A stretch of 7,531 nucleotides of DNA from the IMG/VR virus record IMGVR_UViG_2529292715_000018; one strand, written 5' to 3'. The position numbers were made by a program, and so were the translations under genes. The DNA is from a virus (taxonomy: Duplodnaviria > Heunggongvirae > Uroviricota > Caudoviricetes). How positions within the stretch are numbered: the stretch's first letter is position 1; every line of letters starts with the position of its first letter. The notes beneath the pieces are model-generated. The model was not told where the DNA came from. It saw only the letters and a list, made by a program, of their open reading frames with translations, and ran no database searches. Shown here in pieces: positions 1-7,531 of the stretch.

Positions 1-303
1 TTAACGCGTATTTTTCAGCGACTCCTGTGCAAAATACGCTGTTGCTTTTTTTAATATATCTCGCTCAAGGCGAGCTTCATTTAACGCCTTACGCAGCTGC
101 AGAATTTCAGATTCCAGTTCAGCCAGCGTGCGGGAACCAGGAGTACCGAGCCCTTTTCTGGCGGCGGTAACCCATTGTCCTAAAGTGCCTTCAGGAAGAG
201 ATAATCGGGAAGCGCCTTCACTGATCGAAAGTTGATTTTCAAGAACCGTTCTGACAGCTTCGGCTTTGAACTCTTTAGAGTAACGTTGGGTTTTTCTGCT
301 CAT
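1..303 (-). CDS. IS3-family transposase OrfA (IS600-like), 100 aa, HTH plus leucine-zipper
   Basis: ORF MSRKTQRYSKEFKAEAVRTVLENQLSISEGASRLS...LQLRKALNEARLERDILKKATAYF, typical IS3-family OrfA architecture. Strong SD (AGAAGGAG) 7 nt upstream of ATG on minus strand. Stop codon at 1-3. Confidence 0.85.
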   Translation of the reverse strand: MSRKTQRYSKEFKAEAVRTVLENQLSISEGASRLSLPEGTLGQWVTAARKGLGTPGSRTLAELESEILQLRKALNEARLERDILKKATAYFAQESLKNTR

Positions 304-367: not shown

Positions 368-714
368 CTTATTCTAAGCAACCGGGTAGCATCATACGGG
401 GCAATTATGGCCGCATTACCATACATGCAACTGTACATAGCTGATTATCTGGCTGACACCATGCATTTGTCAGCAGAGGAGCACGGCGCGTATTTGTTGC
501 TGATGTTCAATTACTGGCAAACAGGAAAGCCAATACCCAAAAACAGGTTGGCAAAAATTGCCCGTCTGACTAACGAGCGATGGGTTGATGTTGAACCATC
601 CTTGCGGGAGTTTTTTTGTGATAACGGCGACGAATGGATGCATCTTCGGATTGAGGAAGATCTGGCATCTGTCAGAGAAAAATTAACCAAAAAATCAGCC
701 GCAGGAAAAGCATC

Positions 715-813
715 TGTTCAGGCCAGAAGAAGCAGAAAGGAAGCAGATGTTCAAACAAAACAAGAGAGAAATTTAACAGGTGTTCAAACAGATGTTGGAG
801 TGGTGTTCGAACA
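715..813. repeat. Iteron-like repeats (TGTTCA core; TGTTCAAACA x2, palindromic TGTTCGAACA x1), putative phage origin
   Basis: TGTTCA at 715, 749, 781 and TGTTCG at 804, spaced 34/32/23 bp, inside the initiator coding sequence immediately upstream of the IS2 insertion point. Confidence 0.4.
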
Positions 814-814
814 T

Positions 815-819
815 GATGC
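815..819. repeat. IS2 target-site duplication, left copy (GATGC)
   Basis: GATGC directly abuts the IS2 terminus at 820 and recurs at 2073-2077 directly after the other terminus. IS2 is known to make 5-bp duplications. Confidence 0.8.
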
Positions 820-830
820 TGGATTTGCCC

Positions 831-1655
831 CTATATTTCCAGACATCTGTTATCACTTAACCCATTACAAGCCCGCTGCCGCAGATATTCCCGTGGCGAG
901 CGATAACCCAGCGCACTATGCGGATGCCATTCGTTATAATGCTCGAACGCCTCTGCAAGGTTCTTTGCTGCCGTTAACCCGTCTGGTTTGGGCATGATAC
1001 TGATGTAGTCACGCTTTATCGTTTTCACGAAGCTCTCTGCTATTCCGTTACTCTCCGGACTCCGCACCGCCGTGTTCTTCGGTTCAAGTCCCAACATCCG
1101 GGCGAACTGGCGTGTTTCATTAGCCCGGTAGCATGAACCATTATCCGTCAGCCACTCCACTGGAGACGACGGAAGATCGTTGCCGAAGCGGCGTTCCACC
1201 GCTCCCAGCATGACGTCCTGTACTGTTTCACTGTTGAAGCCGCCGGTAGTCACCGCCCAGTGCAGTGCCTCACGATCACAGCAGTCCAGCGCGAACGTGA
1301 CACGCAGTCTCTCTCCGTTATCACAGCAGAACTCGAACCCGTCAGAGCACCATCGCTGATTGCTTTCTTTCACGGCCACTCTGCCTGTATGTGCCCGTTT
1401 CGATGGCGGTACAGCAGGTTTTCGCTCAAGCAACAGCGCATTCTGGCGCATGATCCGGTAAACACGTTTGGCATTGATCGCAGGCATACCATCAAGTTCT
1501 GCCTGTCTGCGAAGCAGCGCCCATACCCGACGATAACCATACGTGGGCAGCTCTCCGATAACATGGTGTATACGGAGAAGCACATCCGTATCATCAGTGT
1601 GACGACTGCGGCGGCCATCCATCCAGTCATCGGTTCGTCTGAGAATGACGTGCAA
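831..1655 (-). CDS. insD: IS2 transposase InsD (OrfB) catalytic region, N-terminally truncated (begins at [11 protein letters not shown]; no ATG)
   Basis: Translation [18 protein letters not shown]...[34 protein letters not shown] matches InsD from about residue 27 onward. The reported M is a TTG codon. An in-frame TGA lies 10 codons upstream. Confidence 0.85.
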
Positions 1656-1981
1656 CTGCGCACGCGACCCCCGGATTCAACGGCTTCTTTGAGGAGTTCA
1701 TTTTCCATCGTTTTCTTGCCGAGCAGGCGCTGGAGTTCTTTAATCTGCTTCATGGCGGCAGCAAGTTCAGAGGCAGGAACAACCTGTTCTCCGGCGGCCA
1801 CAGCAGTAAGACTTCCTTCCTGGTATTGCTTACGCCAGAGAAATAACTGGCTGGCTGCTACACCATGTTGCCGGGCAACGAGGGAGACCGTCATCCCCGG
1901 TTCAAAGCTCTGCTGAACAATTGCGATCTTTTCCTGTGTGGTACGCCGTCTGCGTTTCTCCGGCCCTAAGACATCAATCAT
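1370..1981 (-). CDS. insC: IS2 InsC (OrfA) with aberrant C-terminal extension; native C-terminus and frameshift window deleted
   Basis: [40 protein letters not shown]...[14 protein letters not shown] matches InsC. After EAVE the frame runs on out of frame through the InsD region to a stop at 1370, instead of ending after about 121 aa. Confidence 0.8.
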
Positions 1982-2072
1982 CTGTTCTCCAATGACTAGT
2001 CTAAAAACTAGTATTAAGGCTATCACTTAAATAAGTGATACTGGTTGTCTGGAGATTCAGGGGGCCAGTCTA

Positions 2073-2077
2073 GATGC
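2073..2077. repeat. IS2 target-site duplication, right copy (GATGC)
   Basis: Identical pentamer flanking the opposite IS2 terminus. Confidence 0.8.
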
Positions 2078-2813
2078 CAACACAAAGGCAACTAATAAAG
2101 ATACAGATAAAGATCTAAAAACAGATCTAACCCATCCCAAACCCTTCCCTTCCGGAAGGGAGTTTCGGGATTTTGTGGCTGGAGTGCTTGAGGGGAGATT
2201 ATCTGGCGGTACTGCAGCGGAATTTTGTAATTCTGCGGTGGTTGCGTTGCAGGCTGCTGGCCTGGATGTCTGTCGTGAGTATCCGGTGCCAGAGCGTGGT
2301 GACGGTTGCGGAGGGCGGATTGATATCGTCGTGACTGACAGGAACGGTGTCCGGTGTGGGATCGAGCTTGACCGAAATTCTCCGCGACAGAAATCACTGC
2401 TCAAAATCGGTGCTGTTGAAACCGGGATATGTGTCTTGCGGCGCAGTGATATCGCAAGGCACACCGAGCAGGGAATTCTGGTTATCGGTGGGGCTGTTCG
2501 CCAGAAAAAATTTGACCCGTTGTCAGTTGATCTGCCCGACTGGTTGCCAGATACACTCTGGCATGAGTGGGTCCAGTTCAGGCAGGCATTGCGAAAACCG
2601 ATTCGAACGGAGCTGGGCGCTAACGGGGCGATACGGGAACTGGAAAAATTCCGTCAGCAGGGTTTTACACCTGAGCAGGTGATTCGACACAGCATCGCCA
2701 ATGAATACCAGGGTCTGTTCGCGCCGAAAGGTGTTCGGCCTGAGACGTTGCTCCGACAGGTTAACACCGTCTCGTTGCCGGACAGTGCGATCCCGCCAGG
2801 CTTCAGGGGGTAA
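2078..2813 (+). pseudogene. Phage replication initiator, C-terminal fragment (continues 407-819 in frame once IS2 and one GATGC copy are removed)
   Basis: Frame is open from 2079 with no stop. Removing 820-2077 joins it in frame to 407-819, giving a 382-aa ORF. Stop TAA at 2811-2813 lies 6 nt before the DnaC-like start. Confidence 0.7.
2079..2135. other. A-rich tract with short repeats (AAAGAT / ACAGAT), candidate DNA-unwinding element of the putative origin
   Basis: Sequence aacacaaaggcaactaataaagatacagataaagatctaaaaacagatctaac lies directly downstream of the iteron-like repeats in the pre-insertion arrangement. Confidence 0.3.
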
Positions 2814-4003: not shown

Positions 4004-4060
4004 GTAAAATTAGCTATCAGGCTTCAATTACCGCTGGTATTCGCATCAAAGGAGAGGAGC

Positions 4061-5757: not shown

Positions 5758-6122
5758 TGATTAATCGAACCAAACTGGAGCACATTCTCGAATATGCCAG
5801 GCAGCAGAAATGTATTGGGCAACTTTGTAAAATTCCACCAGGAGATATGGTTGAAATCGTGGAAATGGCCATGCGTAAGGCTGGCAACTCTCCGGTAACT
5901 CTGGCTGGCTGGATAAGCTGTAGTGATGCAGTTCCTGCTGAATATTGCGATGTGATTCTTCTCGATGATCTCGGGAATGTATTCCCCGGTTCCTGGGATA
6001 AGGTTTTTTGCCCCACTCGTGGCGGGAATAAGATGGCTTTTGTGGACAAAGACGGCGTTGAAGTAGAGAGCTCAACTCACTGGATGCCGCTACCGGAACC
6101 ACCGCAGGAGGTGAATCAATGA
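5757..6122 (+). CDS. DUF551-domain phage protein
   Basis: C-terminal THWMPLPEPP and GWISCSDAVPAEYCDVILL match the DUF551 pattern as recalled. Translationally coupled to the upstream gene. Confidence 0.8.
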   Translation: MINRTKLEHILEYARQQKCIGQLCKIPPGDMVEIVEMAMRKAGNSPVTLAGWISCSDAVPAEYCDVILLDDLGNVFPGSWDKVFCPTRGGNKMAFVDKDGVEVESSTHWMPLPEPPQEVNQ

Positions 6123-6202
6123 CCTGGCCTGAGGCATTCACCACGGTAGGAATTGCGATGGCGGTGGCGCTGGTGGTGTATTCGATTTGCCGTTGGGGTT
6201 AA
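6119..6202 (+). CDS. Small hydrophobic peptide (27 aa, MTWPEAFTTVGIAMAVALVVYSICRWG), putative single-TM membrane peptide
   Basis: ATG overlaps the upstream stop (ATGA). Strong SD AGGAGG 8 nt upstream. Followed within 10 nt by an intrinsic terminator. Below the ORF-track length cutoff. Confidence 0.4.
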   Translation: MTWPEAFTTVGIAMAVALVVYSICRWG

Positions 6203-6209
6203 CAAACAA

Positions 6210-6240
6210 AAACCCCGGATTGATGGTCCGGGGTTTTTGA
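6210..6240 (+). terminator. Rho-independent terminator
   Basis: Hairpin AACCCCGGA...TCCGGGGTT followed by TTTTT. Confidence 0.75.
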
Positions 6241-6408
6241 AGGAAACAAAACAGAAACAGCAATTGCCGTTACCTGTTGTTACCATGGCAAGTAAACGTA
6301 TCTCAGGCGAGCGCATTGCGCCGTTCTGACGCAGATAAATTAGCCTGGATAGAAGGTGCTGGCAATAAAAAATAGCGTTTTCTTATCGGTATCGGTAAGA
6401 TTGCTGCG

Positions 6409-6420
6409 GGTGCTTGAGGC
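6409..6420 (+). promoter_or_regulatory. Putative 5' end of hok mRNA (tac-like element GGTGCTTGAGGC)
   Basis: Resembles the 5' end of plasmid R1 hok mRNA (GGCGCUUGAGGC) as recalled. Complementary to a 3' element at 6782-6793. A possible -10 (TAAGAT) lies at 6396-6401. Confidence 0.5.
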
Positions 6421-6454
6421 TGTCTGCCTCGGGCATGCCACTGTAAGGCAGACA

Positions 6455-6550
6455 GAGAAAAGCCCCAGTTAACATTACGCGTCCTGCAAGACGCTTAACA
6501 TTAATCTGAGGCCCAATCTATGTCTCACAAATGTAGGTTAGCCTCTTACG
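6455..6550 (-). ncRNA. Sok-like antisense RNA, putative; boundaries approximate
   Basis: By analogy with hok/sok loci the antisense RNA is encoded opposite the mok start and leader. An inverted repeat GCGTC...GACGC (6479-6494) and a T-rich stretch on the minus strand could form its 3' end. Promoter not confidently identified. Confidence 0.35.
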
Positions 6551-6732
6551 TGCCGAAAGGCAAGGAGAAGCAGGCTATGAAGCAGCAAAAGGCGATGTTA
6601 ATCGCCCTGATCGTCATCTGTTTAACCGTCATAGTGACGGCACTGGTAACGAGGAAAGACCTCTGCGAGGTACGAATCCGAACCGGCCAGACGGAGGTCG
6701 CTGTCTTCACAGCTTACGAACCTGAGGAGTAA
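6520..6732 (+). CDS. Mok-like reading frame (70 aa) containing hok in frame
   Basis: ATG at 6520 opens a frame running into and through hok, the arrangement recalled for chromosomal mokC/hokC. Confidence 0.55.
   Translation: MSHKCRLASYVPKGKEKQAMKQQKAMLIALIVICLTVIVTALVTRKDLCEVRIRTGQTEVAVFTAYEPEE
6577..6732 (+). CDS. hokD: Hok/Gef-family type I toxin (51 aa), HokD/RelF-like
   Basis: MKQQKAMLIALIVICLTVIVTALVTRKDLCEVRIRTGQTEVAVFTAYEPEE: single TM helix plus conserved RKxLCE...GQTEVA motif. Matches HokD (RelF) as recalled from memory. SD AAGGAG upstream. Confidence 0.85.
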   Translation: MKQQKAMLIALIVICLTVIVTALVTRKDLCEVRIRTGQTEVAVFTAYEPEE

Positions 6733-6823: not shown

Positions 6824-7007
6824 TTGCGTGCTGAATACGCAGGGTGAAAAATAACCATATATTTGATTATATACACAACAAAAAATAAAAGTCATTGTAC
6901 TTGCACATTAAACAATCAAATATACGGCGTGAAATAAATATTTTTCAGATTAATATTTTTGTCTCTATGTGGATATAACCGTTTGTACTTATAAACCTGG
7001 AGGCATC

Positions 7008-7220
7008 GTGGAGAAAATAAAGAAACTATTTAGTAGCAAATACGCAGTCATACGTCGTGATGACCTGTCAGTTATAGTCGAAATGGATTACTTCCCTGAA
7101 ACCCCAAAATCAATAATGTATCGTAATGGTCGAAAGGCAATTTTTTTACCGATGAGGGTAAGTGACATTATGGGAAATGATAAACTGCTGGATGAATTGC
7201 GAGTCAGAGCATCCTGTTAG
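7008..7220 (+). CDS. Hypothetical small protein (70 aa from GTG 7008; 83 aa if GTG 6969 is used)
   Basis: SD GGAGG 4 nt before GTG at 7008. Preceded by an AT-rich promoter-like region (6840-6990). Stop at 7218-7220, 2 nt before the IS1 terminus. Function unknown. Confidence 0.45.
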   Translation: MEKIKKLFSSKYAVIRRDDLSVIVEMDYFPETPKSIMYRNGRKAIFLPMRVSDIMGNDKLLDELRVRASC

Positions 7221-7222
7221 TA

Positions 7223-7531
7223 GGTAATGACTCCAACTTACTGATAGTGTTTTATGTTCAGATAATGCCCGATGACCTTGTCATGCAGCTCCACCGATTT
7301 TGAGAACGACAGTGACTTCCGTCCCAGCCTTGCCAGATGTTGTCTCAGATTCAGATTATGTCGCTCAATGCGCTGAGTGTAACGCTTGCTGATAACGTGC
7401 AGCTTTCCCTTCAGGCGTGATTCATACAGCGGCCAGCCATCCGTCATCCATACCATGACCTCAAAGGCCGACAGCAGGCTCAGAAGACGCTCCAGTGTGG
7501 CCAGAGTGCGTTCACCGAAGACGTGCGCCAC
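7223..7531 (-). mobile_element. IS1 element, partial (terminus at 7223; continues beyond window end)
   Basis: Terminus GGTAATGACTCCAACTTACTGATAGTGTTTTATGTTCAGATAATGCCCGATGAC matches the IS1 inverted repeat as recalled. InsB C-terminus is encoded on the minus strand. Confidence 0.9.
7238..7531 (-). CDS. insB: IS1 transposase InsB, C-terminal part (partial at window edge)
   Basis: [94 protein letters not shown] matches InsB with a few substitutions relative to the K-12 isoform as recalled. Confidence 0.9.

Follow-up and report, generated by a model that had tools for sequence, protein, structure and literature searches.

An IS2 copy interrupts a prophage gene in the IMG/VR virus record IMGVR_UViG_2529292715_000018, a stretch of 7,531 nucleotides whose full length we call the window, and this copy is shorter than the canonical element. 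The locus raises three questions: exactly what the element has lost, whether the loss occurred where the element now sits, and what the shortened copy can still be expected to do.

The 7.5-kb window is part of a Rac-like cryptic prophage, a decayed one, in a Shigella flexneri-like chromosome. From left to right it contains a ydaU-like gene (DUF1376), a ydaV-like gene for an IstB/DnaC-type ATPase, genes for DUF977, DUF4014, an HNH endonuclease and DUF551, and a hok/sok module. Three insertion sequences interrupt it: an IS600 end (1-367), the IS2 copy (820-2072, minus strand), and an IS1 end (from ~7223). The IS2 copy divides the ydaU-like gene into a 5′ part at 407-819 (plus strand; Pfam DUF1376) and a 3′ part at 2078-2813 (plus strand), whose counterpart in E. 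coli FDAARGOS_944 (L002) is labeled a “YdaU family protein”. When 407-819 is joined to 2078-2813, with IS2 and one GATGC removed, a single 382-amino-acid YdaU-like ORF is obtained. The 5-mer GATGC flanks the element as a target-site duplication, with one copy at 815-819 and the other at 2073-2077. In FDAARGOS_944 the same prophage segment is found without IS2; the two flanks abut, and GATGC occurs once.

The element is an IS2 copy with a single internal gap

As a reference we used the RefSeq-annotated IS2 at L001:101-1431, which is 1331 bp long and has a coding sequence marked “programmed frameshift”. A MAFFT alignment of window positions 800-2092 (minus strand) with this reference is colinear throughout save for one gap of 78 columns, and the copy at 820-2072 measures 1253 bp. 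A megablast search of 820-2072 against 5,426 complete E. coli genomes returned thousands of IS2 matches. In all of the top-listed records, annotated “IS3-like element IS2 family transposase”, the 1253-base query aligns in two pieces over a span of 1331 bases. Four mismatches to the reference lie outside the gap (~99.7% identity; the megablast figure is 99.5%), namely AA to TT at IS2 positions 42-43, T to C at 54, and T to G at 482.

The termini of the element read TAGACTGG...CAAATCCA, and both ends agree with the reference except for a common AA/TT allele at positions 42-43. The lengths of the inverted repeats are taken from the IS2 literature (Lewis et al.). With these lengths, the left inverted repeat (IRL; IS2 positions 1-42) lies at 2031-2072 on the minus strand and is identical to the reference save at its innermost position, 42. 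The right inverted repeat (IRR; the last 41 bp) lies at 820-860 on the same strand and is intact, position 482 being the only mismatch in the whole right arm. The copy thus has near-identical IS2 DNA, IS2 termini with their inverted repeats, a 5-bp target duplication, and a DDE (rve) domain in orfB. What it does not have is the overlapping arrangement of orfA and orfB in frames 0 and -1 around an A6G slippery window. Judged by its sequence, the window copy is IS2 by descent, but a defective derivative and not an intact functional member.

Two of the differences lie near the left end. An 18-bp palindrome, ATCACTTA-NN-TAAGTGAT, spans window positions 2022-2039 at the inner edge of IRL. Its central dinucleotide (window 2030-2031; IS2 42-43) is TT in the window and AA in the reference, with position 43 (window 2030) falling just internal to IRL. 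The orthologous insertions themselves are divided between the two alleles (AA in L007, TT in the other orthologues), as are unrelated IS2 copies, and this dimorphism looks like a flip of the palindrome loop or conversion between copies. At window position 2019 (IS2 54), between IRL and the start of orfA, the C is private to the window copy; the reference and all 13 orthologous loci described below have T.

The junction lies in register with a direct repeat

Base-by-base comparison places IS2 1-398 in the left arm and IS2 476-1331 in the right arm. One T is common to both edges, and the missing segment can accordingly be written as IS2 399-476 or as 398-475. The junction, which joins IS2 397/398 to 476/477, lies at window positions 1674-1676 and reads ...AAGCCGTTGAAT/CCGGGGGTCGC... 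on the minus strand; the parental sequence reads ...AAGCCGTTGAAT[ATGG...78 bp...GTTGTCT]CCGGGGGTCGC.... The only AAAAAAG of IS2 (409-415) falls within the gap, and no AAAAAAG is left in the window element.

Intact IS2 contains the 8-mer AGCCGTTG twice, at 388-395 and at 466-473, with a spacing of exactly 78 bp. A single copy remains in the window (1678-1685, minus strand). As repeat spacing and gap length are equal, deletion and repeat are in register. The crossover itself lies 3 nt 3′ of the perfect repeat, and the AA that follows the left copy has been retained. The window junction, which we call AA-type, reads GCCGTTGAAT|CC, as against GCCGTTG|TCTCC for the simple product of the perfect repeat (TC-type). 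If the three additional bases are included, the sequences aligned at the window junction are the imperfect 11-mers AGCCGTTGAAT and AGCCGTTGTCT, which match at 9 of 11 positions, the 3′ T among them.

Much of this had been anticipated by a first-pass annotation made from the letters of the window. It had put the element at 1253 bp against 1331 bp, with about 78 bp missing, which the alignment, with its one 78-column gap, bears out. It had read the junction as GTTGAAT/CCGGGGGTCGC, and this is the sequence found on the minus strand at 1674-1676. Its claim that the A6G slippery site had been removed agrees with the position of the sole AAAAAAG inside the gap. The short repeat GCCGTTG, given there as lying at both deletion boundaries in canonical IS2, is indeed present at both, 78 bp apart, as part of the longer 8-mer. 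All of this follows deterministically from the alignment, and chance plays no part in it.

The deletion separates the DNA-binding and catalytic parts of the transposase

The coding consequences can be read directly from the frames. Since 78 bp is 3 × 26 bp, orfA continues across the junction in frame 0 and orfB stays in frame -1. The deletion takes the A6G heptamer, the last 19 codons of orfA with its stop codon, and the first 21 codons of orfB including its start. What results upstream is a chimeric orfA of 203 amino acids at 1370-1981 (minus strand). Its first part (1676-1981) encodes residues 1-102 of InsC, with the helix-turn-helix (HTH) and coiled coil, out of the 121 residues of the native protein; the remainder (1370-1675) encodes a tail of 101 residues, followed by a stop, in a frame that is native to neither orfA nor orfB. 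Pfam HTH_Tnp_1 matches the chimera at residues 8-87 only.

Downstream, a remnant of orfB (InsD) extends over 831-1655 (minus strand), with matches to Pfam HTH_21, rve, and rve_3. Its DDE/rve core is intact; it has no native start and is unlinked to orfA. In the -1 frame a TGA stands exactly at the junction (GTTGAAT), and the frame is open from window position 1676 only. The first start in the orfB frame is a TTG at window position 1655, which would give 274 amino acids versus the native 301. This 274-residue product is identical to the matching stretch of intact IS2 copies, and the deletion is therefore the only lesion. An exact look-up of the remnant returned normal IS2 copies only, in which annotators had chosen the TTG start, and it is uninformative on the deletion.

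With the two frames kept apart and a TGA at the junction, no InsCD (OrfAB) fusion can be encoded. OrfAB is the functional transposase of IS2 and is made at low frequency by slippage at A6G (PMC3219604). Its domain map places H+HTH at residues 13-60, a leucine zipper (LZ)-like motif at 70-103 (coiled coil, 73-100), a middle interval at 104-206, and the catalytic site at 236-398 (PMC3219604). The 26 OrfAB residues removed by the gap, 103-128, straddle the boundary between the LZ-like motif and the middle interval. Given this map and the retention of residues 1-102, the chimera keeps the DNA-binding and dimerization parts of InsC. No protein predicted from the window copy can connect this InsC part to the catalytic domain, and the copy can reasonably be regarded as non-autonomous.

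Here, too, the first-pass annotation holds up in the main. It had InsC losing its native C terminus and gaining an out-of-frame tail of more than 100 residues, and we find 102 native residues followed by 101 foreign ones. For InsD it had given a loss of about 26 N-terminal residues: the truncation is real and the figure approximate, with ~21 codons deleted and 27 residues lost when the TTG start is used. The frame analysis supports its view that the fusion transposase cannot be made and that the copy is probably non-autonomous.

Comparison with two described forms of IS2 helps to define what kind of element this is. Canonical IS2, a 1331-bp member of the IS2 subgroup of the IS3 family, has orfA (insC), orfB (insD), and an OrfAB that arises through -1 frameshifting at A6G; its termini, 5-bp duplication, orfA residues 1-102, and DDE-coding body of orfB are the same as those of the window copy. 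The window copy differs from it in the absence of IS2 399-476, with the A6G window, the orfA C terminus and stop, and the orfB start, and in encoding no OrfAB. The second form is the frame-fused A7G IS2, engineered for OrfAB overproduction (Hu et al. 1996; Lewis & Grindley 1997, both as cited in PMC3219604). As A7G IS2 is described in PMC3219604, both it and the window copy have an altered frameshift window in which programmed frameshifting is abolished. The outcomes are opposite: A7G adds one base and, by that account, fuses orfA to orfB in frame with high transposase production, whereas the deletion in the window keeps the frames apart and should give none. Both intact ends and the absence of an encodable OrfAB are found in the window copy, whose function would thereby be lost, and it is best described as a defective, potentially trans-mobilizable deletion derivative.

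A run of five G residues follows the junction, and we considered it as a candidate for a new frameshift site. The sequence C GGG GGT does not fit the heptamer pattern X XXY YYZ, and the intact parental copy has this G5 run as well; we rejected the candidate.

The deletion arose in a resident copy

Insertion of IS2 into the ydaU-like gene created a 196-amino-acid ydaU::IS2 read-through ORF (window 407-997), which we used as a site-specific probe for orthologous insertions. An exact look-up found this ORF on 24 contigs, from which 13 distinct loci were returned. All 13 have the flanks, insertion point, orientation, and 5-bp duplication of the window. IS2 is 1331 bp long in 12 of them and 1329 bp in the remaining one (L015), which has scattered 1-nt indels. 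The window junction is absent from all 13 loci. A second look-up of this 196-amino-acid ORF, made with short flanks, contributed three orthologues to the set, all of full length.

Four of the orthologous records are named as S. flexneri in papers: LR861785 and LR861788 (serotype 3a1), CP024473 (serotype 7b (7a+)), and LR213452. Since the same insertion is found in several S. flexneri lineages, the IS2 insertion is older than their split. S. flexneri lineages have about a third of their IS sites in common (PMC7373316), a report with which an insertion predating the lineage split is in agreement. The serotype 3a group stands nearest to the window, from which L008 differs by 8 single-nucleotide polymorphisms over 7.5 kb. 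The T482G substitution, 6 nt from the junction, is common to the window and to L008, L013, L015, and L030. G482 is otherwise uncommon: among the listed matches only the two best E. coli and the two best plasmid records have it, and the listed S. flexneri pINV copies have T.

Because IS2 is essentially full length at the 13 orthologous sites and the parental sequence is known, the deletion arose in the resident copy, within one sublineage. As a matter of sequence comparison, it is the sole structural change from a known parent.

The same segment has been lost more than once

A homology search with the chimeric protein retrieved P0001, also of 203 amino acids and 95% identical, which reads ...EAVVSGCRVRSC.... 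The contigs that encode it (L017 and L018, from GCA_052955855.1 and GCA_052955995.1) contain an IS2 variant, ~96% identical to the reference and 1253 bp long, on a Rep3 plasmid-like contig. Their junction has the perfect-repeat form GCCGTTG|TCTCCGG. A pattern scan of JGI metagenomes gave one TC-type match, L019 (SKEV01000552.1), in which canonical IS2 has the same 78-bp deletion with the perfect-repeat junction. These forms and the window copy are alike in having lost 78 bp between the same AGCCGTTG repeats, and the orfA chimera of L017/L018 is likewise of 203 amino acids. They are unlike it in their TC-type junction, as opposed to the AA-type of the window, and in their backbones and locations. 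As backbone, location, junction, or several of these differ, the three 78-bp deletions are independent events. In BLAST searches of E. coli genomes with the TC-type junction, two-piece matches to intact IS2 tie with one-piece matches at 100%/100%.

The AA-type junction had no second occurrence in the 5,426 complete E. coli genomes, PLSDB plasmids, GTDB representatives, JGI metagenomes, or IMG/VR. Neither version of the chimeric orfA product, with an ATG (203 amino acids) or a GTG (218 amino acids) start, had an exact-protein record. The deleted form is likely to be single copy and not to have propagated.

Other matches of the chimeric protein are IS2 copies with different internal deletions, in which the frameshift window is likewise missing. 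In the S. sonnei contig FUBF01000081.1 (L020:2410-3029), IS2 has lost 261 bp between GCCGCCG repeats (IS2 275-281 and 536-542), a loss that takes the frameshift window with it and gives a 142-amino-acid orfA chimera (P0011). This copy resembles that of the window in the short repeat at its junction, in the loss of the frameshift window, and in the passage of orfA into the same alternative frame; it differs in the repeat pair used (GCCGCCG) and in size (261 bp). Four more proteins (P0002, P0007, P0009, and P0010) indicate further internal deletions of IS2 in which the same alternative frame is read.

Probable slippage between short repeats and its alternatives

In our view, short-repeat slippage in place very probably produced this non-autonomous IS2 copy with intact ends, as a case of ordinary IS decay. 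IS2 first inserted into the ydaU-like replication gene of the Rac-like prophage, in an ancestor from which several S. flexneri lineages descend, and duplicated GATGC. Much later, in the lineage of the window, the resident copy lost 78 bp in place. The two AGCCGTTG copies that flank the frameshift window most likely took part in slipped-strand mispairing or in some other short-homology event that does not need RecA. The nascent strand may have copied three bases beyond the left repeat before it re-paired with the right copy (AGCCGTTGAAT on AGCCGTTGTCT). Realignment 3 nt beyond the perfect repeat would explain the AA that the junction shares with the left copy, as might repair of a slipped heteroduplex in favor of that copy. 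With its inverted repeats and DDE-coding part intact, the copy might be mobilized by the OrfAB of other IS2 copies, and it could serve as a substrate for homologous recombination.

How much the match between repeat spacing and deletion length is worth can be gauged by enumeration. IS2 allows 215,571 different deletions of 20-200 bp, and only 197 of them (0.09%) have at the junction an exact repeat of at least 7 bp that is in register. This low frequency, together with the two independent recurrences of the 78-bp deletion and the repeat-bounded 261-bp deletion, strengthens the idea of slippage. What speaks against a simple slip is that the junction differs from the perfect-repeat product, two of its bases (AA) coming from the left copy. 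The first-pass suggestion of slippage or short-homology deletion gains from the in-register repeat and the two recurrences, and it needs amendment for the 3-nt offset of the junction from the perfect repeat. Taken together, the refinements to that account, as read from sequence alignments, are that the repeat is 8 bp long, that the junction is offset by 3 nt, and that the deletion arose in place. The same offset is what might favor a repeat-independent break-and-join through the single T of microhomology, the only nucleotide common to both breakpoints, with the agreement with AGCCGTTG spacing being accidental. Such an accident would be expected about 9 times in 10,000, as the deletion length equals the repeat spacing exactly, and two independent 78-bp deletions use the same pair of repeats; we consider break-and-join unlikely.

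Two other explanations concern the gap itself and the place where it formed. The strain could have a normal 1331-bp IS2, with the gap introduced in assembly or polishing of a multicopy repeat. IS2 is indeed multicopy in Shigella (PMC7373316), the 13 orthologous loci are all of full length (one with small indel errors), and the exact junction of the window was matched nowhere else in the databases searched. Yet the rest of the copy is free of errors and agrees with its closest orthologue, including the rare G482 beside the junction; repeats of 8 bp are not normally collapsed by assemblers, and the deletion is biologically plausible, since two unrelated data sets show the same loss of 78 bp. An artefact is thus highly improbable. 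The deletion might instead have arisen in a different copy: an IS2 that had already lost the segment could have transposed into this site by means of OrfAB acting in trans, or a deleted IS2 of the same genome could have been the donor in a gene conversion. Trans-mobilization is possible in principle for a copy with intact ends, and Shigella genomes have many IS2 copies capable of recombination (PMC7373316). Against import stand the site, the orientation, and the GATGC duplication, which are the same as in the 13 essentially full-length orthologues, so that a deleted copy is very unlikely to have inserted independently at exactly this base, as well as G482, 6 nt from the junction, which the window copy has kept in common with the orthologous copy of its closest relatives. 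We accordingly find an origin elsewhere highly unlikely.

A more speculative reading concerns function. The 1253-bp form could be a recurrent “regulator-only” allele that damps transposition of other IS2 copies, with the repeat-flanked frameshift window as a built-in deletion hot spot; we hold this to be most improbable. If it were true, the only InsC-like protein made would consist of residues 1-102 (H+HTH and the whole coiled coil, 73-100) and a junk tail, and such a protein could still bind IS2 ends or the promoter in IS-laden Shigella genomes. Still less likely is weak -1 slippage on the CCGGGGGT run just past the junction, which would give OrfAB minus 26 residues.

Structure-assisted slippage was also considered. 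Single-stranded DNA folding of the deleted segment revealed no significant hairpin joining the repeats (z = -1.0), and this variant is unsupported.

Significance for IS annotation

IS decay by small deletions between short direct repeats is ordinary. Shigella genomes are rich in IS copies, and IS2 is multicopy there, with copies able to recombine (PMC7373316). A literature search found no paper on this 78-bp IS2 allele. It is no new kind of element or mechanism. In annotation, the IS2 of the window should be entered as a pseudogene or defective element with no active transposase, and it should not be counted among the autonomous elements when IS copies in Shigella are tallied. The site offers a dated and polarized example of IS decay, with a full-length ancestor in sister lineages and the deletion as the sole lesion. 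The IS2 frameshift window lies between 8-bp repeats and has suffered the same 78-bp loss independently at least three times, which makes it a small deletion hot spot to expect when variants are classified by length or ORFs. The 78-bp difference in size also provides a simple PCR marker for the carrier lineage. Beyond correct annotation the importance of the copy is slight; what is worth recording is that ancestor and descendant can be told apart cleanly here, and that the repeat-flanked frameshift window has been lost repeatedly.

Other features of the prophage

The remaining insertion sequences lie at the two ends of the window. The IS600 end (1-367; orfA at 1-303, minus strand) adjoins the ydaU-like gene. 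To the left of IS600, the closest S. flexneri 3a relatives (L008, L013, L015, and L030) have a lambdoid holin/antiterminator region, and other S. flexneri lineages (L007, L009-L012, L014, and L016) have a ycjZ-like LysR gene beside tyrR-tpx. This difference in the left-hand DNA suggests an IS600-mediated rearrangement in the 3a group. The IS1 end (insB, minus strand; 7223-7531) directly follows an 83-amino-acid ORF at 6969-7220. Homology with E. coli FDAARGOS_944 ends at 7222, beyond which that genome has phage DUF1367/DUF1364 genes, and IS1 thus marks another break in the prophage.

The hok/sok-type toxin-antitoxin module is complete and occupies 6408-6732. Rfam sok (RF01794) matches at 6408-6582 (plus strand) with 118 bits, versus a gathering score of 59. 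The hok ORF (6577-6732) encodes 51 amino acids beginning MKQQKAMLIAL, and a mok-like ORF with a start at 6520 overlaps it. Just past the DUF551 gene and a short ORF at 6120-6200, a G+C-rich hairpin followed by a T run (AAAAACCCCGGATTGATGGTCCGGGGTTTTT; 6205-6240) resembles an intrinsic terminator. The genome with the empty IS2 site, E. coli FDAARGOS_944, has a frameshifted ISEc52 (L002:5392-6642) between the DUF977 gene and the next ORF, at a point corresponding to window positions 4014-4017; the same prophage backbone has thus been struck by different IS elements in different lineages.
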